64,000 nt of DNA. Source: a virus. The stretch is taken from the IMG/VR virus record IMGVR_UViG_3300023504_000391, positions 51,299 through 115,298 of that record; one strand, given 5' to 3'. Of the stretch, positions 25,065 through 63,625 are shown piece after piece (positions within the stretch are counted from its first letter, which is position 1; each line of letters begins with the position of its first letter). The notes under the pieces are model-generated. The model was not told the DNA's origin. It was given only the letters and a program-made list of their open reading frames with translations, and made no database searches. Both the position numbers and the translations under genes were made by a program.

Positions 25065-25463
25065 ATGGTTGAGAGTAAAAAAGAACATAAATGTAAACGA
25101 GAAATAAAAATTAAGGCATATGATATTGTTACTGTTGATTTTGGCGATGTCCCAATTGGAAGTGAACAAGGAGGCATTCGACCTGCTGTGGTTATTCAGA
25201 ATAATATTGGAAATTATTATAGTCCAACAACAATCGTATTGCCATTGACTTCTCAAAAGAAAAGTTTAAAACAACCAACACATGTCCTCCTTAAAAGCGA
25301 ATTTATATCTGCTTTAACAGAAGATAGTATTGTTTTAGGCGAAGCTGTTCGTCAAGTAGATAAGAGTAGAATTTTAGATTATAGAGGAAAAATAACAGAT
25401 AAAAAATATAAGCAACAAATTTATAATGCTTATATATGCAACATAGAAGGAGTGAGTGAATAA
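25065..25463 (+). CDS. MazF/PemK-family endoribonuclease toxin
   Basis: VTVDFGDVPIGSEQGGIRPAVVIQNN......TIVLPLTSQKK...PTHVLL matches the PemK/MazF core (G.E..G.RP.vV...........P.TS); AAAGGAGG RBS. Confidence 0.8.
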   Translation: MVESKKEHKCKREIKIKAYDIVTVDFGDVPIGSEQGGIRPAVVIQNNIGNYYSPTTIVLPLTSQKKSLKQPTHVLLKSEFISALTEDSIVLGEAVRQVDKSRILDYRGKITDKKYKQQIYNAYICNIEGVSE

Positions 25464-33822: not shown

Positions 33823-33894
33823 TAGGGCTATCGCCAAGCGGTAAGGCACAGGGTTTTGATCTCTGCATCCATCGGTTCGAATCCGATTAGCCCT
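33823..33894 (+). tRNA. tRNA-Gln (anticodon UUG), CCA not encoded
   Basis: Manual cloverleaf: acceptor AGGGCTA/TAGCCCT, D-arm GCC-AAGCGGTAA-GGC, anticodon stem CAGGG/CTCTG with loop TTTTGAT, T-arm ATCGG-TTCGAAT-CCGAT. Confidence 0.8.
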
Positions 33895-33925
33895 GTTATT
33901 TACAGTAAGAAAGGAGAATAAGAAA

Positions 33926-49143: not shown

Positions 49144-52100
49144 CAATTATCATAAACATGATCATGTCTCTAATATTTTTTCGCCAGATACAAACACCAA
49201 GCAAGAAGAATATATTTTGAAAGCACTTGAATATGGTCATACAAGTTATTATACGACAAACCACGGCTCGTTTGGCGATATATTTGAGGCAAAGACTCTT
49301 TGTAATAAGTACGGTATTAAGTGTATAGCAGGAATTGAAGGATATATTGTACCAGACGCTTCTGAGAAAGATAAAAGGAATTACCATATTATTGTAATTC
49401 CAAAAACTGATGAAGCAAGAAAAAAGATGAATTATGTTTCAAGTATGGCGAATATCAATGGATTTTATTATAAACCAAGATTTTTTATGAAGGATTTACT
49501 TGCTTTGGATAGGGATGATGTGTATATTACAACTGCCTGCGTAGCAGGTCTTTTGAGAGATGAGGATTCAATTGAAAAAATATTTAAGCCATTATTTAAA
49601 CATTTTGGCAATAATGTAATGCTTGAAGTCCAAACTCATCTTGATCCCATTCAGATAGAGATAAACAAAAAAGCTATTTATTTTTCGGATGAATACGGGT
49701 TATCATTGATTGCCGCCAATGATTCCCATTATATTAACGAAGAAGGCAAACAAGAACGTCTTGAATTATTAAAAGGTAAACATATTAATTATGGTAGTGA
49801 GGATGATTTTATTTTAGATTATCCAACTGCTGAGACAATGATAGAGAGATTCAAAAAACAAAATGTTTTGTCAGATAAACAAATTGATGATGCGATTAAT
49901 AATACTCTGATATTTGATAATTGTGAAGAAATCAAACTTGACTATTCTATCAAGATGCCAACCATCTATCCAAATCTTACGCCAAATCAGCGTGTAAAAC
50001 TCCTCAAAAAAGAAATCAACAAGCGATTTAAAGTCATTAGAGAACAAGAAAATATATCTGATGATGATTTTAAAAGATACCGAGATGGTATTCGATATGA
50101 AATGAAAATCATAGAGGATACAAATGATAAAGTTCATACGGCAGATTATTTCCTATTTAATGAGAAAAATGTTGATTTAGCAGTAAATAAATATGGTGGA
50201 GTACTTACAAGAGGTGGAAGAGGTAGCTGTGGTTCTTTTTATATAAATAGAATATTGGGAATGACTCAGCTTGATAGATTTAAAATTAATCTTCCACTTT
50301 TCCCTGATAGATTTGCTTCCACTGCTCGATTATTAGAAAATCGTTCCCTCCCAGATATTGATTTTAATGTTAAAAGTCAAGAGCCATTCGTTAAAGCTTC
50401 AAGAGAATTATTGGGAGAGCATGGTTGTTATCCAATGTATGCACCTGGAACTATGCAGATTTCAGAGGCATTTAGAAATGTATGTCGTTCAAAAGGTATG
50501 GATTTTGATGAATTTAATGATGTAGCAAAAAATCTTGAAGCTTATGAAAATGATGAAAAATGGAAACCAATCATAGAAGAAGCGAATAAATATGTAGGAA
50601 CAATCGTATCTGGTTCAGTACATCCCTGCGCCCACATTCTAAGCGATAAGAATTTATTATACGAATATGGTGTAACTAGGTTAGGAGAAAATCTTTGTGT
50701 ATTAATAACATCATCTGAAGCTGATGAATACAAAGTGCTTAAAAACGACTATCTAATCGTCAAGGTTTGGAAATTAATTGATGAAACGTTTAAAGAGATT
50801 GGAAAACCGATTATTACAGCGAATGAGTTGTTAAAATCTATCAAAGATGATAAGAGAATATGGGATTTATTTAAGAATGGAATAACCTGTACTCTTAATC
50901 AGGTGGATAGCGACAATGGATCGCAACAAGCAAAAAGATATAAAGTGTCCTCATTTGAAGATGGTGCTCACTTAACGGCAGCTATCAGACCATCGTTTGA
51001 CTCATGGAGAGAGCAATTTTTAAATCGAGAAGATTATACAACTGGTTCAGAACAATTGGACGAAGTTTTAAGTGATACACATGGATATATATTATTCCAA
51101 GAGTCTTTAATGCAATATTTTGATTGGCTTGGTGTAACACCTGCTGAGTCTATTGGATTAATCAAAAAGATATCTAAAAAGAAAATAAAACCAGAAGACT
51201 TTGCTAATCTCGAAGAAAGAATCAGAAAACAATGGATAATCAATACTGGTTCAGAGGGTGGGTTTGATACAACTTGGAAAATGATTCAGAGCTGTATGAG
51301 TTATGGATTCTGTAGTGCTCATGCGGCAGCCACATCTCTTGATATGTGTTATGGTGCATATTTAAAGGTTAATTATCCACTTGAATATTACAGTGTATGT
51401 TTCAATAATTACGCAGATGATCAAGTAAGAACAAATAAGCTTAAAAAGGAACTGGATTATTTCAATATCAAATTGAGCGATATTAAATTTAGATACTCAA
51501 CATCAAAATATTCTTACAATAAAGAGAATAATACCATATACAAAGGAATGTCGTCTATTAAGTATATCGGCGATAATGTTGGAGATGATTTGTACACTTT
51601 GAAAGATAAGAAGTACAACGATTTTATAGATTTGCTTATTGATATAAAAAATACTTCTGTTAATTCCAAACAATTAGAGATATTGATTAAATTGAATTTC
51701 TTTTCTGAGTTTGGTGAAATAAATACTCTACTTGCTCAAACAGATTATTTTGATAAGGTGTATGGTAAAAAACAATTCAAGATAGATAAACTTGAAGAAT
51801 TGGGATTACCTAAAGATATTGTTAAATCTCACTGTAAAAAACAAACAGAAAAAATCTGGAAGGATTTTGATTCAATATCGTTGTTAAAAGATATTGTAAA
51901 GAATGTGGATTATAAAGAGACTTCTATTTTAGATATTTTTAATTATCAGCAAGAATTATATGGATATGTGTCTTATACTCAGCCAACAGCTAACAAACGA
52001 CTATATTATGTATCAGACATTAATTCTACGAAATATCTTACAACAATTACTCTATTTGAGATTTATAGTGGTAAGACACGAACAGTCAAAATGTGGACAA

Positions 52101-52905: not shown

Positions 52906-53661
52906 ATGGACAAAGTAAAAGTTTTTGAAGGACTATTAAACAAGTTTGAGACAGATGAGATTAGAGATTATTGTGCTGATATGATTAAGGAAATTCCAGA
53001 TTATATCTTCACAATTCCAAGTAGTACATCTTTTAAGTATCATAATAAAACACAGTGTCAGCCACATGGTCAGATTTTTCACGTTTTAATGTTTGCAGAA
53101 GTAATGAATTATGTTCTTGGATTAGAGTATGTAAAAGAAAAGACCAATGAGCGACAGCGAGATTGTTTGCGCTGCACACCAATTTTTCATGATGCAATTA
53201 AATGTGGGCTAAATGGTTCTCAATATACGGTACACGAACATCCAATACTTGCAGGTAAGTGGGTGAGAAATACATCTGTTGAGCATGATGTAGACGATGA
53301 TACAAAAGTATATATTGCAAGATTATGTGAGAGTCATTCGGGTGAATGGACTTCTACAAAAAGAAGTAAGACAGTATTGCCAAAGCCTGAAAATGACGAG
53401 CAGTTCTTTGTACATATGTGCGATTATTTAGCAAGTAGGTCAAATCTTGATATGACATATTCTGATGATGTAGTTTCTGCATTAGGTGGTGTTGATATTC
53501 CAAAGGAAGATTTGCCAGACCTTGATTCTTATGTAATTACATTTGGAAAATATTCAGGAAAGACACTTCCACAAATCAAAGAAATTGATCCTGATTATAT
53601 CTCATGGGCTAAAGAAAACATGAATAGAGAACCAATTAAGAGTTTATTAGCTCAATTGTAG
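52906..53661 (+). CDS. HD-domain metal-dependent phosphohydrolase with a C-terminal DUF3820-like motif
   Basis: H...HD..H..H..D pattern (..IFHVL.., ..IFHDAIK.., ..HEHP.., ..CESHSG.., ..CDYLASR); C-terminal FGKYSGKTLPQIKEIDPDYISWAKEN. Confidence 0.65.
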   Translation: MDKVKVFEGLLNKFETDEIRDYCADMIKEIPDYIFTIPSSTSFKYHNKTQCQPHGQIFHVLMFAEVMNYVLGLEYVKEKTNERQRDCLRCTPIFHDAIKCGLNGSQYTVHEHPILAGKWVRNTSVEHDVDDDTKVYIARLCESHSGEWTSTKRSKTVLPKPENDEQFFVHMCDYLASRSNLDMTYSDDVVSALGGVDIPKEDLPDLDSYVITFGKYSGKTLPQIKEIDPDYISWAKENMNREPIKSLLAQL

Positions 53662-54766: not shown

Positions 54767-54982
54767 ATGACAGATAGAAAAACTAAAACAATACAGTGGA
54801 CAATAAATTTACCTATGGACTTTCCTTCAGATTGGGATGACGATATGATTGAATTTCATCTTAATGAATCAAGTTGGTGTTGTAGTAATCTCATTAGTGA
54901 ACTTGAAAAGCACGATGAGAAAAATGGTTGTATTTGTAGCATATGTGAAGCAAAAGTTATTGAGGAAATCTTTGAACAGTAG
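54767..54982 (+). CDS. hypothetical small Cys-rich protein
   Basis: ACAGGAGAATG RBS. Confidence 0.55.
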   Translation: MTDRKTKTIQWTINLPMDFPSDWDDDMIEFHLNESSWCCSNLISELEKHDEKNGCICSICEAKVIEEIFEQ

Positions 54983-54995
54983 AATGGGAGTAGTT

Positions 54996-55247
54996 ATGTA
55001 TAATACAGGAGACATTTACAGAATTATTCAAGATGCATTAGACGCAAATCAGATATATTGTACAGACTCTAAACTTGGTGATGGTTCAGAAGATACTTAT
55101 GAGACAGATACGGAATTTGTTTCTGGCAACGATGCTCACTTGATTGCAACTGTTAAACATCAGCATTTTGATTATAATCGTTCTTATCAAGAAAATGAAC
55201 ATACAGAAACAACAAAATTTAGAATTAAAGTTGAAATGATAGAGTGA
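54996..55247 (+). CDS. hypothetical protein
   Basis: ORF 54849..55247; GGGAG RBS before internal ATG 54996. Confidence 0.5.
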   Translation: MYNTGDIYRIIQDALDANQIYCTDSKLGDGSEDTYETDTEFVSGNDAHLIATVKHQHFDYNRSYQENEHTETTKFRIKVEMIE

Positions 55248-56172: not shown

Positions 56173-56502
56173 ATGTATAAACCAAGTATAGGTGATGTAG
56201 TTTTAGATAATAACATTCCAATGGTTGTTGTAGCTTTAGAGAGTAACGAAAATGTTGGAAGTTGTTCTTATGATAGAAAATATCTTCTTTGCGAAGAATC
56301 TTATATGAAAGAATACAAAGAGCATAATATAAGTACAATCTCATTGGAAAAGATCATGCAACATGGAAGATGGGTTACTATATATGGAACAAAATTTCCA
56401 GAAATACATAAATGTGAAGATATTGCACCATATGAGATTCGCCCAATTCGTGCGTATTCTTTTAGACAGAAAGAAGCAAAGACAATTACAGTATATGAGT
56501 AA
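56173..56502 (+). CDS. hypothetical protein
   Basis: AAAGGAGAT RBS. Confidence 0.65.
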   Translation: MYKPSIGDVVLDNNIPMVVVALESNENVGSCSYDRKYLLCEESYMKEYKEHNISTISLEKIMQHGRWVTIYGTKFPEIHKCEDIAPYEIRPIRAYSFRQKEAKTITVYE

Positions 56503-56736
56503 ATTAAGATGAATTTTTGGTTTCTTGGTTTGTCACGAAAACTATACAATATTTAGGACAAACAAGAGAATATAACAATATAAATACAAAAACAAAGGAA
56601 AGGAAAATGTTCACATGTGAGTAAAGCTGCGCAGCTACTATTGTCCCATGTGATTTTAAGATTTTCAACAAGGAAGACGCTCAGATATATATTGATAAGT
56701 TACAGAGTATTGTAGATCAGATAGGAGAATAAGAGT

Positions 56737-57420: not shown

Positions 57421-57460
57421 GAGAATATATACATAAAAAATAGAAAAAGAGGTACTGAAC

Positions 57461-58387
57461 TTGGAACAGAAGAAATTTATGGATATTTCACGTATTAAGG
57501 AAGATACGGAATTAACAGTAGCGAATACAGGTGGTTTCCATGTAGGAGATCATATTGTAATTCAGGAAAAGGTAGATGGAAGCAATTCAGCTATTGCTTA
57601 TGATAAAGAAACAAATAAGTTAGTTGCATTTTCGAGAAGGCAGACTCTTGATTATAACAACACATTAAATGGATTCTGGAATTGGGTACAGACATTGGCA
57701 GTTGAACCATTTCAAAAATATCCAAATTATGTATTTTTCATGGAGTGGCTTACAAAACATACTATTAAATATATTCCAGAAGCTTATGGTAAATCATATT
57801 TTTACGATGTATATGACAAAAAGAATGAATGTTATTTACCTCAATCAGAGGTTAAGAGACTTGCTGATGAATTAAATCTGAGATATGTTCAGACATTTTA
57901 TGATGGAGAGTTTATCTCTTGGGAGCATTGTATGTCATTTATGCACAAGTCAGATATTGCGGTTGATGTACCTGAAGGAATTGTCGTTAAGAATCAGACA
58001 GAACTTAACAACCTAAACTCAAGAACTCCATTTGTATTAAAGATTGTAAATTCACAGCTTAGTGAAATCAAGAAAGATAATCACAGACAGAAAGTAGAAG
58101 ATCCTCAGAAATTAGCAGCTAAAGCAAAGACTTCTGAAATTGTAGAGCAGATTGTCACAAAGAATCGTGTTCAAAAAGAATTATACAAAATGATTGATGA
58201 GGGTGTTTTACCTCAAAAGATTGAGCCACAGGACATGAGAATTGTTGTACAGAATCTACCTAAGAGAATTTTTGAGGATTGTGTAAAAGAAGAGAATGAA
58301 TTAGTTATCGAAGCTGGTGAATTCTTTGGTAAGATGTGTGATTCTGCAACTATGAATTGGGCTAAGAAGATTATTTTTGGAGAATAA
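57461..58387 (+). CDS. ATP-dependent RNA ligase-like nucleotidyltransferase (Rnl2/RNA_ligase-family; TTG 57461 or ATG 57479 start)
   Basis: Ligase motif I EKVDGSN (KxDG); motif IV-like EGIVVKN; motif V-like VLKIVNSQ. Confidence 0.7.
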   Translation: MEQKKFMDISRIKEDTELTVANTGGFHVGDHIVIQEKVDGSNSAIAYDKETNKLVAFSRRQTLDYNNTLNGFWNWVQTLAVEPFQKYPNYVFFMEWLTKHTIKYIPEAYGKSYFYDVYDKKNECYLPQSEVKRLADELNLRYVQTFYDGEFISWEHCMSFMHKSDIAVDVPEGIVVKNQTELNNLNSRTPFVLKIVNSQLSEIKKDNHRQKVEDPQKLAAKAKTSEIVEQIVTKNRVQKELYKMIDEGVLPQKIEPQDMRIVVQNLPKRIFEDCVKEENELVIEAGEFFGKMCDSATMNWAKKIIFGE

Positions 58388-58389
58388 AT

Positions 58390-58572
58390 ATGTGTAACCA
58401 TTGTGATTATAACTCACCTGACAATCAAATATATGTAGATCTATTAACAAATGAACATTACTTGGGCATTGAAACTTCTGAATGCGATGGTTATGATGAT
58501 GGTTGGAACTCATTAAGAAAGAAAATTTTAGGCGAAGCAGATTGGAACTCAGAAATTTTCAACGGAAGATGA
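58390..58572 (+). CDS. hypothetical small Cys-rich protein
   Basis: GGAGAA RBS; CNHCDYNSPDN. Confidence 0.5.
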   Translation: MCNHCDYNSPDNQIYVDLLTNEHYLGIETSECDGYDDGWNSLRKKILGEADWNSEIFNGR

Positions 58573-58693
58573 GTTGAGAAATAGAATAACTACACTTGAA
58601 AAAGAGAATAAAGAATTAAAGGAAGAAATAAATCATTTGATTGATAGAAACAATGAGCTATTAAGGTTGTATATAGAAAGGAATGATAAGTAA

Positions 58694-59479
58694 ATGGCAT
58701 ATATAAAAGAATATTGGCAGAATAAAGAACAGAGAGCAGAAACTGCTCGCAAACATACAAAAGAGATGCAGAATAAATATGGTCGTTGTATTCAGACTGC
58801 TATTTCTGCAACAAAAATTTATGATACAGATTCATTTAATAGGGATTTTGAAGAGGATATCGAAGACAAAGATACCAAGATTATTGTAGAGAATATTGAT
58901 AGTGTAGGTGCTGTAATGAAATACGGCAATCCAAGTACAGCAGTTCTTAATTTTTCTTCATATAAAAATCCAGGTGGAATGTTTCTAAATGGTAGTAAGG
59001 CACAGGAAGAGTGCTTATGTCACGAATCATTCTTGTACAATGTGTTGAGTCAGTTTGTATTAGAGTTTTATGATTGGAATAATCGACACAAGAATAAGGC
59101 TTTATATTTGAACAGAGGATTATTTTCTCCTGGTGTTTGGTTCTTTAGAGAGAATAGCCACATAGAGTGTAGCGTTATTACTTGTGCTGCTCCAAATAAG
59201 TCGGTTGCGCAGAAATATCAGAACGTGTCAGACGAAGAGAATACTAAAGTATTAAGAAGTCGAATTAAATTTGTTCTTGATATGGCAAAAGATAATAATG
59301 TGAGCACTCTTATTTTAGGAGCTTATGGTTGTGGGGTTTTTGGTCAAGATGCAACAGAAGTAGCGAATGTATTTAAAGAATATTTAACTACTATTCATAA
59401 ATGCTTCGATACTGTTGTATTTGCTGTTCCAAATGGTAGAGATGGTAACTATGAGAAGTTTGTAAAGGTGTTTGAGTAG
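58694..59479 (+). CDS. PARG-like macrodomain protein (DUF2263 / bacterial poly(ADP-ribose) glycohydrolase family)
   Basis: ..VLNFSSYKNPGGMFLNGSKAQEECLCHES.. matches the PARG signature GG-x6-8-QEE; ..ILGAYGCGVFGQD.. matches the family's C-terminal glycine-rich motif. Confidence 0.7.
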   Translation: MAYIKEYWQNKEQRAETARKHTKEMQNKYGRCIQTAISATKIYDTDSFNRDFEEDIEDKDTKIIVENIDSVGAVMKYGNPSTAVLNFSSYKNPGGMFLNGSKAQEECLCHESFLYNVLSQFVLEFYDWNNRHKNKALYLNRGLFSPGVWFFRENSHIECSVITCAAPNKSVAQKYQNVSDEENTKVLRSRIKFVLDMAKDNNVSTLILGAYGCGVFGQDATEVANVFKEYLTTIHKCFDTVVFAVPNGRDGNYEKFVKVFE

Positions 59480-59519
59480 CACAGTAAACATAGATTTCCT
59501 TTGTTCTAGTAGAGAATAT

Positions 59520-59735
59520 ATAAATGAGGTAAAACGAACTGAAAGCCTGAGATGGTGAAAAGGTAAAGGTGAAGGCTGAAATTAACAAGTCAGTCAACCG
59601 ATGAGCGTATAGGCTGAAACTCATTTGAGAATATAATGCCTTGGAACAAACCTCAATCCTAACATGTAATGATGAGGAATAAGGATGCTCTCATAGAGTA
59701 CAAAAATGAATGTACTCTTATATTTTTTTGGAGGT
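59520..59735 (+). ncRNA. candidate structured non-coding RNA ending in an intrinsic terminator
   Basis: About 200-nt ORF-free, comparatively GC-rich region after a TAGAGAATATATAAAT motif (59506); ends with GAGTACA-aaaatgaa-TGTACTC followed by TATATTTTTTT (59693-59731). Confidence 0.3.
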
Positions 59736-60777: not shown

Positions 60778-61284
60778 ATGAATGGAAACGAATATCAAAG
60801 GTTCGTGATGGAATTAAATGATTATAACGATATGGAGAAAATCAATTTATTTGCTCAAAATAATGGTAACGCTACAACAGGATTATTATTAAACGGAGTG
60901 CTTGGGTTGACAGAAAAATCAGGTAATGTAGCAAGTGTTATCAAAAAGGGGATATTTAATAAACAATATATAAATAAAGAATCTTTAAAAGAAGATTGTG
61001 GAAATGTATTGAAATATCTTTCTATAATTTGTGCAGGTTTTGGATTTACAATGGACGAAATAATGAATCCAAATATCTTAACTAACAACTATGAAAGAGA
61101 AGAAACAACAAATAAAATTTTCAAAGAGATTGAAACTGTTCAGAAAATTAGAGAACAAACTATTAACGAAGTTATAAATCTCATAGATGACTTCCAAGAT
61201 ACTTTAGCTTATGGAGAATACGATTATTTTCCAAACGAAGACATAAAAGATTGGTTAGAAAAACTAAAGAAAAAGGTGGAATAA
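60778..61284 (+). CDS. MazG-like all-alpha nucleoside triphosphate pyrophosphohydrolase-fold protein (some catalytic acidic residues appear substituted)
   Basis: ..LLNGVLGLTEKSGNVASVIKKGIF......LKEDCGNVLKYLSIICAGFGFTMDEIM.. matches the MazG/HisE-like pattern (GL.gEaGE...K......EELGDvLwYL). Confidence 0.55.
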   Translation: MNGNEYQRFVMELNDYNDMEKINLFAQNNGNATTGLLLNGVLGLTEKSGNVASVIKKGIFNKQYINKESLKEDCGNVLKYLSIICAGFGFTMDEIMNPNILTNNYEREETTNKIFKEIETVQKIREQTINEVINLIDDFQDTLAYGEYDYFPNEDIKDWLEKLKKKVE

Positions 61285-61600: not shown

Positions 61601-62587
61601 TTGAAATTACATAAAAAGATTAAATCAAAAATAGATGACAGTATTAAATATATATTTTTTACAGAAGAAGGTTTAGCTGTAGAATCAACGTTTATAGATA
61701 AGCATGATAGTAAAAATATTATCTGTTTACCAACTCAGACTTCTCGTTGTATGAAATGTAAGTTTTGTCATATAACCGACATAGCATCAGAAATTATTTT
61801 AAGAAACATAACAGATATTGAGATAGTACAAATGGTTGATTATATATTTAACGATTTAGAATTATCAAAGGATAAAATGTTGCTTATCTCTTTTATGGGT
61901 TGTGGAGAGCCTTTATTAAACTCAGTAAATTTGATTAAAGGAATGATTTTATTAAACAGTTCTTATGCAAAAATTAGATTTGCCCTCGCCACTTCGATGC
62001 CCAAAAATAATGAAGAACATTTTAAAGATTTTGTTAAAAAAATAAAAGATAATAAATTGAATGTAAAACTTCATTTATCATTGCATTATACAAACGATTT
62101 AGACCGACATAATTGGATGCCTAATGCTGAAATAATAAGTAAGTCTTTGGAATTATTAGATTATTATAAAAAAATAACAAATAATGCTATAGAAATACAT
62201 TATACATTAATAAATGAAGTAAATGATAGAGAAGAAGACATTAAGAAATTAATTAGCTTTTTTAAAAATAAAGATGTATGTATTAAATTTATTAGATATA
62301 ACTCTAAAAACACCATCAACTCCACAGAGACTCCGATAAACAAAGCAGAATCAATTATGAAAATATTAGAAAACAATGGAATTAAAACAGAATATTATAT
62401 TCCACCTGCGAGAGATGTTGGTGGTTCTTGTGGTCAAATATTGGTTAAAGAATATTTAAAATACAATAAGAAAAACATTCAAATAAATATTAGAACAAAC
62501 ACAGATGATTTGGATAAATCTATTAAACAATACAGAGAAAACAGAGAGCGTAATCCTCATATATATATGCTAACAAAAACACACTAA
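61601..62587 (+). CDS. RlmN/Cfr-like radical SAM enzyme (TTG start)
   Basis: ..NIICLPTQTSRCMKCKFCH.. aligns with RlmN ..LCVSSQVGCALECKFC.. but with one residue fewer (C-x2-C-x2-C); ..ISFMGCGEPLLN.. matches RlmN ..FMGMGEPLLN; ..TLINEVNDREEDIKKL.. matches the family's L..vND motif. Confidence 0.7.
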   Translation: MKLHKKIKSKIDDSIKYIFFTEEGLAVESTFIDKHDSKNIICLPTQTSRCMKCKFCHITDIASEIILRNITDIEIVQMVDYIFNDLELSKDKMLLISFMGCGEPLLNSVNLIKGMILLNSSYAKIRFALATSMPKNNEEHFKDFVKKIKDNKLNVKLHLSLHYTNDLDRHNWMPNAEIISKSLELLDYYKKITNNAIEIHYTLINEVNDREEDIKKLISFFKNKDVCIKFIRYNSKNTINSTETPINKAESIMKILENNGIKTEYYIPPARDVGGSCGQILVKEYLKYNKKNIQINIRTNTDDLDKSIKQYRENRERNPHIYMLTKTH

Positions 62588-62790: not shown

Positions 62791-63090
62791 ATGGATAAAA
62801 ATAATCACAACATGTCTTTGACTTTAGAGTGGAATGAATATGATAACAACAATACAAACCGTAGAATCAAAGTCATCGGTTATCCAAACACTCTAAGTGA
62901 AGCATTTTCTTTAATAAGAAAGTTCTTGAAACAACATAATTATAAATGTTATGCAATAAGACGATGGTTAAAGGAGAATAGAGTAGTGATTGATGTTGGT
63001 AGTCATACTCAGCTCTTCTACATAAGTAACTTAAATGAAACGACAAAACAAGAATTGATTAAAGAAGGATTGATAAAAAATGAGGATTGA
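62791..63090 (+). CDS. hypothetical protein
   Basis: ATAGGAGAAAT RBS. Confidence 0.6.
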   Translation: MDKNNHNMSLTLEWNEYDNNNTNRRIKVIGYPNTLSEAFSLIRKFLKQHNYKCYAIRRWLKENRVVIDVGSHTQLFYISNLNETTKQELIKEGLIKNED

Positions 63091-63625
63091 AGTAGCAAAA
63101 CATGAGGATATGTGGCAGGAAATAAAGAACTCTGCTATGTTTACTATGGGTAAAGATGCTGGTAAATATCCAACAAGTGAATGGAAAAAGAGAATATTAT
63201 TAGCAGAACATAGTCCAATAAGAGATGGATACTTTATTTTAAACTGCTATGAAATACCATCATTTGTCATTGGACATATCGTTCGACATTTTAACGGTAT
63301 TGAAAAATATGTCCAGTCATTAAGAAGCGATAGAACAGAATATACAGAAGTCCCTAATAGAAATACATTACAGAATGTTAGATTAAGAATTAATTTTCAA
63401 GCGTTTATTAATATTAGTAGAAAAAGACTTTGTTCTTGTGCAAGTAAAGAAACAAGAGAGTTTTGGCAATTAATTCTTGATACAATTAAAAGTTATGAAC
63501 CAGAGCTATATTCGGTCTGTGTTAGAGAATGTATCTATAGAGGCTTCTGCCCAGAGATGAAAAGTTGTGGATATAACAATACTGAAGCCTTTCATCAAGC
63601 TCTTAGTGAATATAGAAAAGTATAA
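63080..63625 (+). CDS. divergent ThyX-like (flavin-dependent thymidylate synthase fold) protein
   Basis: ..LLAEHSPIRDGYFILNCYEIPSFVIGHIVRHFNGIEKYVQSLRSDR.. parallels the ThyX ..ESPLEH..F.F.I.G.SRA..HQLVRHRIASYSQQSQRY.. block, but RHR is replaced by RHF with a one-residue spacing difference. Confidence 0.45.
   Translation: MRIEVAKHEDMWQEIKNSAMFTMGKDAGKYPTSEWKKRILLAEHSPIRDGYFILNCYEIPSFVIGHIVRHFNGIEKYVQSLRSDRTEYTEVPNRNTLQNVRLRINFQAFINISRKRLCSCASKETREFWQLILDTIKSYEPELYSVCVRECIYRGFCPEMKSCGYNNTEAFHQALSEYRKV

Follow-up and report, generated by a model that had tools for sequence, protein, structure and literature searches.

The 64-kb stretch of viral DNA analysed here (the window; positions 51,299 to 115,298 of IMG/VR record IMGVR_UViG_3300023504_000391) carries, next to each other, a gene for an ATP-dependent RNA-ligase-family protein and a gene for a macrodomain of the poly(ADP-ribose) glycohydrolase (PARG) type. 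Do these two genes form one functional module, or are they neighbours for another reason? A first reading, made from the letters alone and called here the sequence-only reading, had proposed a linked pair that could act as a counter-defence cassette. Both open reading frames (ORFs) were confirmed at 57461-58387 and 58694-59479 on the + strand. The linkage did not survive analysis: the genes assort independently in this phage group, and their adjacency is a rearrangement scar. The locus contains the following features.

57461-58387, + strand: ATP-dependent RNA-ligase-family protein of 308 aa, with a PF09414 nucleotidyltransferase domain and an all-helical C-terminal domain
58390-58572, + strand: chimeric small ORF of 60 aa that spans the junction of two cassettes; no family match
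58469-58497, + strand: weak promoter-like site (TTGAAA-17-TATGAT) inside the small ORF, upstream of PARG
58535-58693, + strand: gene remnant, the last 52 codons and stop of a 164-aa gene; rearrangement scar
58694-59479, + strand: bacterial-type PARG-like macrodomain of 261 aa, assigned by PF10021/TIGR02452 and fold
59695-59718, + strand: terminator-like hairpin and T-run downstream of PARG; weak stem with 3 GC pairs

The product of 57461-58387 is a PF09414 ATP-dependent RNA-ligase-family protein by profile and fold, as had been proposed. It matched PF09414 (RNA_ligase) with 78.2 bits (E=1.1e-21; cutoff 27) and the 'RNA ligase' family phrog_548 with E=9e-45. Its AlphaFold model (predicted local distance difference test, pLDDT, 88.6) comprises a nucleotidyltransferase domain and a four-helix C-terminal domain. 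When the model was searched with Foldseek, the top 21 matches were all RNA ligases (Rnl3, T4 Rnl2 and NgrRnl; best E=1.4e-9); the whole model fits archaeal Rnl3 and T4 Rnl2, and its catalytic domain fits Naegleria Rnl5. In the profile search against the Protein Data Bank (PDB), Rnl3 and Rnl5 were the best matches (E=0.001-0.02) and T4 Rnl2 was not among the matches. Motif I, EKVDGSN, is present as described by the sequence-only reading. A comparison of 43 homologues showed no variation at its K37, D39, G40 and N42, nor at E95, D116, E172, G173 and K194. The motif III-like FFMEW (E95) and the motif IIIa-like YFYDVY (D116), both assigned by position, are conserved, and so is motif IV, EGIVVK (E172, G173, K177), which aligns to EGIVMK of Palaeococcus Rnl3. 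Membership of the Rnl2 family was rejected: the score against TIGR02307 (the Rnl2 equivalog, T4 gp24.1 type) was 27 bits for a cutoff of 197.15, with an alignment limited to ligase residues 163-280 and Rnl2 positions 183-293, and the protein is Rnl2-like in layout only.

Homologues of the ligase at 33-38% identity were found in 334 phage records, mostly of Herelleviridae and Tsamsa-like phages of Bacillus, Staphylococcus and Listeria, in which the phrog_548 clade is common. Certain records label the homologue as a DNA ligase. A role as the replicative ligase of the phage was rejected because relatives encode their own NAD-dependent DNA ligase, LigA, 2.5 kb downstream of PARG, and the PF09414 enzyme would for this reason be dispensable for replication. 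The separate LigA of the lineage, together with the nearby phosphoesterase, CCA-adding enzyme and RlaP, argues that RNA is the predicted substrate. The sole PADLOC match of the ligase, to TnsB, was judged spurious. In Bacillus phage Tsamsa, the homologue gp182 was located within a 10-kb region (L219, 79887-90702) that also encodes a T4 Rnl1-like RNA ligase (gp174), an ATP-dependent DNA ligase (gp178), and Prs with nicotinamide phosphoribosyltransferase (gp188-189).

The second gene was compared with the bacterial-type PARG family, which corresponds to PF10021 (PARG_cat_microb) and TIGR02452 and was formerly known as DUF2263. The product of 58694-59479 is a bacterial-type PARG in which the catalytic QEE and the diphosphate loop are intact, so that the macrodomain assignment stands. 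It scored 96.5 bits against PF10021 (E=2.5e-27; cutoff 23.5) and 192.5 bits against TIGR02452 (cutoff 50), and it matched the structure chains of DrPARG (E=6e-25) and TcPARG (E=2e-22). The two motifs described earlier, GG-x7-QEE and GAYGCGVFG, are both present; the precise form of the first is GGM-X7-QEE (G94-G95-M96-X7-Q104-E105-E106), which aligns with DrPARG GGGFLGGAQAQEE. The third glycine of the canonical GGG is replaced by a methionine that is nearly invariant within the clade. Q104 and E105 do not vary among 42 homologues, and the conservation of E106 is 90% or higher. The diphosphate-binding loop GAYGCGVFG (residues 209-217) aligns to GAWGCGVFR of DrPARG and is invariant at nearly every position. 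The model (pLDDT 85.5) has an N-terminal helix at residues 11-39. Foldseek retrieved TcPARG (3sih; E=1.4e-17, template modelling (TM) score 0.81) and DrPARG (TM 0.72-0.75), other macrodomains being far weaker. PARG is rare in cultured or deposited phages (20 records, nearly all megaphages: Lak, phage G), and no family of PHROGs matched it.

Two other candidates for PARG relatives were set aside. In the 90%-identity cluster of PARG, the representative and many of the members are 439 aa long, and the two that were retrieved (P0247 and P0252) bear no resemblance to PARG. PARG-ligase fusions were rejected as an explanation, since the 439-aa proteins are plain OB-fold RNA ligases on contigs without an adjacent PARG; their presence in the cluster is most likely a clustering artefact. 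The weak phmmer match of ORF 54849-55247 to PARG (E=3e-4) was regarded as noise.

The ligase and PARG genes lie 306 nt apart on the same strand. The 'small gene' reported between them exists as an ORF (58390-58572), but it is chimeric and overlaps the remnant of a 164-aa gene. In ligase-only relatives the ligase is followed by small ORFs, which residues 1-46 match at 61-74% identity. Residues 32-54 match the CDGYDDGWNSLRKKIL motif at the C-terminus of the genes before PARG in PARG-only relatives, and the final ~12 codons of the chimeric ORF overlap the remnant in a different frame. The 159 nt of the remnant (58535-58693) encode a sequence that shares 79% identity (E=7e-28) with residues 113-164 of the protein from L008 5506-6000. 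The remnant is in frame and its stop abuts the PARG ATG, at the place where the intact 164-aa gene directly precedes PARG in PARG-only relatives; the 120 nt between the small ORF and PARG are remnant coding sequence, not an intergenic spacer. With blastn, the block shared with ligase-only relatives extended from ~57457 to 58394-58533 and the block shared with PARG-only relatives from 58535/58686 to 59473-59721. Because the homology blocks are separate, the 164-aa gene before PARG is truncated and the 60-aa ORF is chimeric, the adjacency is the product of a rearrangement. A ligase cassette (~57457-58533) and a PARG cassette (~58535-59721) were joined by a recent event that truncated the former upstream neighbour of PARG.

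The signals for transcription were scanned in the same region. The promoter-like site at 58469-58497 overlaps positions 58483-58537, a short stretch that relatives have kept ahead of PARG, and may belong to PARG itself; promoter-like sites are no more numerous in this region than expected from shuffled sequence. Four terminator-like sites were found in the region for 1.1 expected, and none on the + strand of the ligase-PARG interval.

To what extent the two genes travel together was read from an IMG/VR sample of 78 PARG loci and 66 ligase loci, in which neighbours were scored within 6 kb. This ligase was found near PARG in just two near-identical loci and in the distant locus L064, and PARG was present in only those two near-identical loci among the ligase loci. 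The PARG and ligase contig lists overlap in only three contigs. This ligase was not found at the PARG loci of 86-97% identity (L003-L039; 0/37), and no PARG at the ligase loci of 90-97% identity (L087-L119; 0/33). Elsewhere, the spacing was ~8.6 kb on one contig and ~4.5 kb at L064; homologues of both genes are present in Bacillus phage G, 36 kb apart, and the 10.8 kb examined around the ligase homologue of Tsamsa contain no PARG. The genes are adjacent in near-identical contigs only, and L079-L084 share the arrangement with the trio 99-100% conserved. Still other relatives have no PARG in this slot, which directly follows an HNH gene, but an OB-fold RNA ligase with an AAA_33 kinase. The island exchanges whole repair solutions between related phages. 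The ligase and PARG assort independently and are accessory, and their adjacency carries less meaning than first appears. A universally conserved core set with a role in DNA repair, which the sequence-only reading had set against its own proposal, is not what the relatives display. As a side observation, the post-HNH slot of L214-L217 (5307-8200) is occupied by a PHA02142-type OB-fold RNA ligase that overlaps the AAA_33 kinase, in place of the 308-aa ligase and PARG, and L215 has NADAR and NAD synthase upstream.

The association of PARG with RNA repair is real at the level of function, though the pair is not fixed. Its neighbourhoods were collected from 134 PARG loci of IMG/VR, metagenomes and 59 species-representative bacterial genomes, which form 49 lineages at 80% identity. 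A core RNA-repair gene was present within 5-6 kb in 14 of these lineages (a raw count), a repair-type gene within 300 nt in 10/49, and a PF09414 ligase near PARG in 5/49. The repair neighbours are RNA ligases of three architectures, RlaP, Thg1-like proteins, CCA-adding enzyme, kinase/HD proteins and Tpt1/KptA, and they often abut PARG. RNA_ligase was among the most recurrent families in a Pfam census of the three nearest neighbours of PARG on each side. The most telling arrangements are given below.

L041-45 and L077: PARG, OB-fold PF09414 RNA ligase, AAA_33 kinase+HD protein, LigA
L161: PARG, OB-fold RNA ligase, RNA ligase of the window type
L184: PARG, Thg1-like protein, phosphoesterase, OB-fold RNA ligase
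L185: Thg1-like protein, RlaP, PARG, with overlapping stops and starts
L196: RlaP, PARG, ATP-grasp protein, KptA, phosphoesterase

A kinase/HD protein is also encoded near PARG in L040, and Tpt1/KptA lies just downstream of PARG in six Lachnospiraceae/Acetatifactor loci (L168, L169, L170, L178, L196 and L211). Close PARG-only relatives have RlaP and a CCA-adding enzyme 3-4 kb upstream of PARG, sometimes with SIR2. At the ligase-only loci, a calcineurin-type phosphoesterase overlaps the ligase stop in 10 cases out of 64. The ligase and PARG genes lie in a hypervariable accessory island in which related phages exchange single-gene cassettes for RNA repair and for NAD+/ADP-ribose chemistry. The role in RNA repair or ADP-ribose processing that had been suggested is retained in part: PARG homologues recur among RNA-repair genes and bacterial-type PARGs reverse RNA ADP-ribosylation (PMC11833690), and what is lost is the fixed pair. 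Two single loci deserve mention. In L168 (296-1739), KptA follows the PARG homologue by 2 nt, as a writer/eraser-like pair; the pairing matches the enzymes used in vitro by Lu et al., the KptA-like SCO3953 and the PARG SCO0909. In the near-identical relative L079 (12393-13683), a NadR-like pair (AAA_28 kinase and CTP_transf_like adenylyltransferase) is encoded 1.6 kb downstream of PARG, with LigA beyond; the pair and LigA tie the island to NAD+ salvage.

The sequence-only reading had held that a ligase next to a PARG is not a textbook module. This overstates its novelty, since a Deinococcus operon and phage RNA repair with Macro domains were already described (PMC11833690, PMC7824862, PMC9503650). 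The pair is a phage instance of a known association, not a new type of system. In the D. radiodurans operon, the ligase DRB0100, the PARG DRB0099 and the HD phosphatase/polynucleotide kinase DRB0098 are encoded together, and an aprataxin-like deblocking was proposed for the PARG (PMC11833690; also PMC1997131, Blasius et al., 2007). A ligase adjoins a bacterial-type PARG on one strand in both cases, the window PARG shares fold and catalytic QEE with DrPARG (E=6e-25, TM 0.75), and in the sister phage lineage L041-45 PARG and ligase are followed by a kinase+HD protein, which corresponds to the third component. The logic proposed for both is alike: the ADP-ribose block would be removed, the ends healed and the break sealed. 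The differences are that the window has no kinase/HD partner by Pfam census and seed searches, that its ligase belongs to the PF09414 RNA-ligase family and is likened to DRB0100 by description, that it lies in a phage accessory island and not in a damage-induced bacterial operon, and that its pairing stems from a recent rearrangement and is not conserved in close relatives. An HD phosphohydrolase had been placed 4 kb upstream, at 52906-53661, and this assignment was not confirmed. Pfam gave only ExoX-like_C, PHROGs a family of unknown function and the PDB an E of ~0.2 to HD-type phosphodiesterases; an H...HD pattern is visible by eye only, and no significant HD match was obtained in Pfam, PHROGs, NCBIfam or the PDB.

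Burroughs and Aravind reportedly were, in 2016, among the predictors of NAD+-dependent RNA-repair systems. In phages, Macro domains were predicted to take part in such repair with KptA, 2H, RNA ligases, RlaP and calcineurin-like enzymes (Iyer et al., 2021, 2022; PMC7824862, PMC9503650). These systems combine KptA/Tpt1 or a sirtuin with 2H, Macro, Nudix or cRec proteins, an RNA ligase, a kinase, a phosphoesterase and RlaP, and the present loci resemble them in that a Macro-superfamily hydrolase occurs near RNA ligases, RlaP, phosphoesterases, KptA and SIR2 in phages and prophages. They differ in that KptA (PF01885), 2H and sirtuin are absent from the window, and in that the surveys treat Macro domains generally, the word 'PARG' having 0 occurrences in PMC7824862 and PMC9503650. 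They also state that no Macro gene adjoins the sirtuin-centred repair neighbourhoods (Iyer et al., 2021/2022; PMC7824862, PMC9503650). The tRNA repair of T4, in which Pnkp with Rnl1, and Rnl2, counter anticodon nucleases such as PrrC, is similar in that a phage ATP-dependent RNA ligase is presumed to reseal RNA cut by the host, and the window ligase has the two-domain layout of Rnl2, a nucleotidyltransferase domain and a helical C-terminal domain. It is far under the Rnl2 equivalog cutoff, however, the window has no Pnkp, and PARG has no counterpart in T4. Finally, immunity by SCO0909 or DRB0099 against the RNA-targeting ADP-ribosyltransferase toxin RhsP2 involves the same family and the same catalytic glutamates, in a stand-alone enzyme able to neutralise the toxin, as suits a cassette that moves by itself. 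The window enzyme is phage-encoded and would protect an infection, not a bacterium in interbacterial competition.

The reading favoured here, with a probability of about 0.55, is that PARG deblocks ADP-ribosylated RNA and the ligase seals breaks, the two genes being independent cassettes in a hypervariable RNA-repair island. We infer both activities, the removal of ADP-ribose from RNA and the sealing of RNA. The PARG-type macrodomain would hydrolyse C1''-linked ADP-ribose adducts on RNA. Candidate substrates are 2'-O-ADP-ribosyl RNA produced by RhsP2-like toxins, ADP-ribose caps put on 5'- or 3'-phosphate ends by Tpt1/KptA-like transferases and the chemically equivalent ADP-ribose-1''-phosphate (Appr-1''-p) left by 2'-phosphotransferase repair. 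The PF09414 ligase would seal 3'-OH/5'-PO4 breaks in tRNA or other structured RNA. Where both are present they may act serially, deblocking and then sealing, in parallel with the aprataxin-like role proposed for the PARG of the Deinococcus operon. Neither gene would need the other, and each alone could be a useful counter-measure against host RNA-targeting immunity or toxins. The enzymology comes from bacterial-type PARGs: SCO0909 and DRB0099 strip ADP-ribose from the 2'-OH of RNA, and each of them shields E. coli against RhsP2 (Lu et al., 2025, PMC11833690). SCO0909 also clears ADP-ribose from 5'- and 3'-phosphate ends of RNA and DNA, which the authors generalise to bacterial-type PARGs (PMC11833690). 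PARG-type macrodomains do not remove ADP-ribose from guanosine bases of RNA, and the DarT-type, thymidine-linked DNA adduct was left out of the PARG substrates tried (Lu et al., PMC11833690). DarT and Thoeris, which the sequence-only reading had listed, are speculative as targets of the pair.

Several observations weigh against this reading. Motif V of the ligase has one lysine only (VLK194IV; assigned by position) instead of the usual KxK, and a specificity for RNA over DNA is predicted from its family only. To our knowledge, the phrog_548 ligase clade has never been characterised, and we know of no host RNA ADP-ribosylating defence in these gut Firmicutes. On the PARG side, the neighbourhood count is a raw one, and 35 of the 49 lineages have no RNA-repair neighbour, many of them being ordinary bacterial chromosomal contexts. 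By Pfam census and seed searches, the 64-kb window contains no polynucleotide kinase, Tpt1/KptA, RlaP, Thg1 or ADP-ribosyltransferase, so that a full healing-and-sealing pathway is not visible in it; some 90 kb of the genome lie outside the window. Moreover, phage Macro domains were held to act mostly on soluble ADP-ribose derivatives and not on macromolecular adducts (Iyer et al., 2022, PMC9503650).

That last view leads to an alternative, which we consider rather unlikely, in which PARG serves a soluble ADP-ribose and NAD+ economy: it would act on Appr-1''-p, O-acetyl-ADP-ribose, by-products of sirtuins or KptA, or immune signals, and the ligase would be close to it because both belong to a shared NAD+/ADP-ribose accessory island. 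The LigA and NadR-like AAA_28 and CTP_transf_like genes of L079 agree with it, as do SIR2 near PARG in eight loci of three lineages, nicotinate phosphoribosyltransferase (NAPRTase) in two neighbour clusters, NADAR and NAD synthase in L215, and nicotinamide phosphoribosyltransferase (Nampt) and Prs beside the Tsamsa ligase homologue. Soluble derivatives are favoured as targets of phage ADP-ribose-targeting domains by Iyer et al. (2022; PMC9503650), and the adjacency of KptA is compatible with the processing of by-products. However, the tightest neighbours of PARG (RlaP, Thg1, phosphoesterases and RNA ligases, with overlapping ORFs) have RNA ends and not small molecules as substrates, the characterised bacterial-type PARGs are efficient on RNA-linked ADP-ribose, and a PARG-type activity on Appr-1''-p or gcADPR is unreported in the literature covered. 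A protein target, reached when PARG reverses mono- or poly-ADP-ribose marks set by a host or phage ADP-ribosyltransferase and unrelated to the ligase, would fit the classical activity of the family, the hydrolysis of poly(ADP-ribose), and the presence near PARG, at several loci, of SIR2 proteins, a group that includes some ADP-ribosyltransferases. We regard it as very improbable: no ADP-ribosyltransferase or PARP was detected in the window, none was found among the 25 neighbour families displayed of 114 except the RNA-acting KptA, and bacterial-type PARGs are exo-glycohydrolases that are not known to remove the protein-proximal ADP-ribose.

Two further explanations were weighed. An accessory role in DNA-end repair or replication, as originally proposed for DRB0098-DRB0100, would have the ligase seal nicks in DNA or RNA-DNA hybrids and PARG clear ADP-ribose from DNA ends or toxin-modified DNA. 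The Deinococcus operon is induced by DNA damage, SCO0909 also strips ADP-ribose from 5'-phosphate DNA, the pair lies downstream of the replication genes for PolIII alpha, an ERCC4 nuclease and a DnaB-like protein, and some records name the ligase homologue a DNA ligase. Yet the lineage has its dedicated LigA and Tsamsa a separate ATP-dependent DNA ligase beside the homologue, the recurring neighbours (Thg1-like protein, CCA-adding enzyme, RlaP) are tRNA-specific, and fold and profile matches rank RNA ligases above DNA ligases; this role thus appears improbable. The obligate two-gene module, a co-adapted and co-transcribed ligase and PARG working as a single counter-defence cassette, is quite improbable and is largely refuted by the distribution, with 37 close PARG loci lacking the ligase and 33 close ligase loci lacking PARG. 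In its favour, the two genes sit side by side in one orientation and no terminator-like site separates them. In an abundant sublineage, seen in L079-L084 and in the 605 blocks in which the exact PARG is indexed, the trio is 99-100% conserved, and the Deinococcus operon is a precedent. On the other hand, the junction is the truncation scar of another gene, PARG may have a promoter-like site of its own, and Bacillus phage G keeps both genes 36 kb apart.

The favoured reading, deblocking and sealing of RNA by independent cassettes, has to be placed in the biology of the phage. The window has a GC content of ~30% and nearly all its genes on the + strand. By Pfam census it encodes PolIII alpha with a PHP domain, DnaB-like protein, ERCC4 nuclease and ClpP, and also an integrase, two S24 repressor-type peptidases, a TnpB-type transposase and a MazF-like toxin. 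The exact PARG protein was deposited as DAF61661.1 ('TIGR02452 family protein [Siphoviridae sp. ct1IF5]'). It was found on 322 contigs, some of 0.2-0.9 Mb with an integrase nearby, and was indexed in 605 blocks; the IMG/VR relatives are 130-160 kb long. From the deposit, the 322 contigs, the long integrase-bearing contigs and the size of the relatives, the source is an abundant, large (~150-kb) temperate siphovirus or prophage of low-GC gut Firmicutes. No relative at the DNA level was found among cultured phages when the region was searched against INPHARED.

Some other genes of the window were recorded. In positions 1-52000, the Pfam census gave a TnpB/IS605 OrfB-type protein (Cas12f1-like TNB domain), an SPFH/Band-7 protein and a DHH/DHHA1 phosphoesterase, besides the integrase and the two S24 peptidases. 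A MazF/PemK-type endoribonuclease toxin homologue is encoded at 25065-25463 on the + strand (PF02452, E=1.7e-25); it matched an approximate B. subtilis EndoA sequence with phmmer at E=6e-22. MazF-type cleavage produces 2',3'-cyclic phosphate and 5'-OH ends, which need healing before a 5'-PO4/3'-OH ligase can seal them. A single tRNA gene, tRNA-Gln with anticodon TTG, lies at 33823-33896 on the + strand. A radical-SAM protein like the RlmN/Cfr RNA methyltransferases is encoded at 61601-62587 on the + strand, 2 kb downstream of PARG (TIGR00048, E=1.3e-34, well under the equivalog cutoff); a MazG-like pyrophosphatase (60778-61284) precedes it and a weak ThyX-like ORF (63080-63625) follows. It may be another RNA-modifying accessory gene. 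Upstream of the ligase, three patches of 50-80 nt (56501-56562, 56565-56643 and 56676-56732) are 86-96% identical in many relatives regardless of the flanking genes, and could be regulatory elements or homology patches that drive the shuffling of cassettes.

The main value of the locus lies in its natural cassette variants and in a ligase clade common to many cultured phages. Related phages with PARG only, with the ligase only, with both, or with an OB-fold RNA ligase and kinase in the same slot are natural experiments. Since hundreds of cultured phages of Staphylococcus, Listeria and Bacillus encode a member of the phrog_548 clade, one assay would annotate many genomes. If the role of PARG is as we infer, the 2025 finding on PARG and RhsP2 would extend from interbacterial toxins to the conflict between phages and hosts in the human gut, and would point to host RNA-ADP-ribosylating defences still to be found. 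More tentatively, it is possible that phages widely use PARG-type macrodomains, as yet unrecognised in this role, to counter RNA ADP-ribosylation by the host at the 2'-OH or at phosphate ends, and that these domains are carried as plug-in cassettes in the 'RNA-repair islands' of gut Firmicutes phages beside interchangeable ligases, RlaP, Thg1-like proteins and CCA-adding enzymes. If this were true, Lachnospiraceae and related gut bacteria would have a class of anti-phage immunity, still to be discovered, that ADP-ribosylates RNA, and de-ADP-ribosylation would be a third 'end-healing' activity for RNA, beside kinase and phosphatase.

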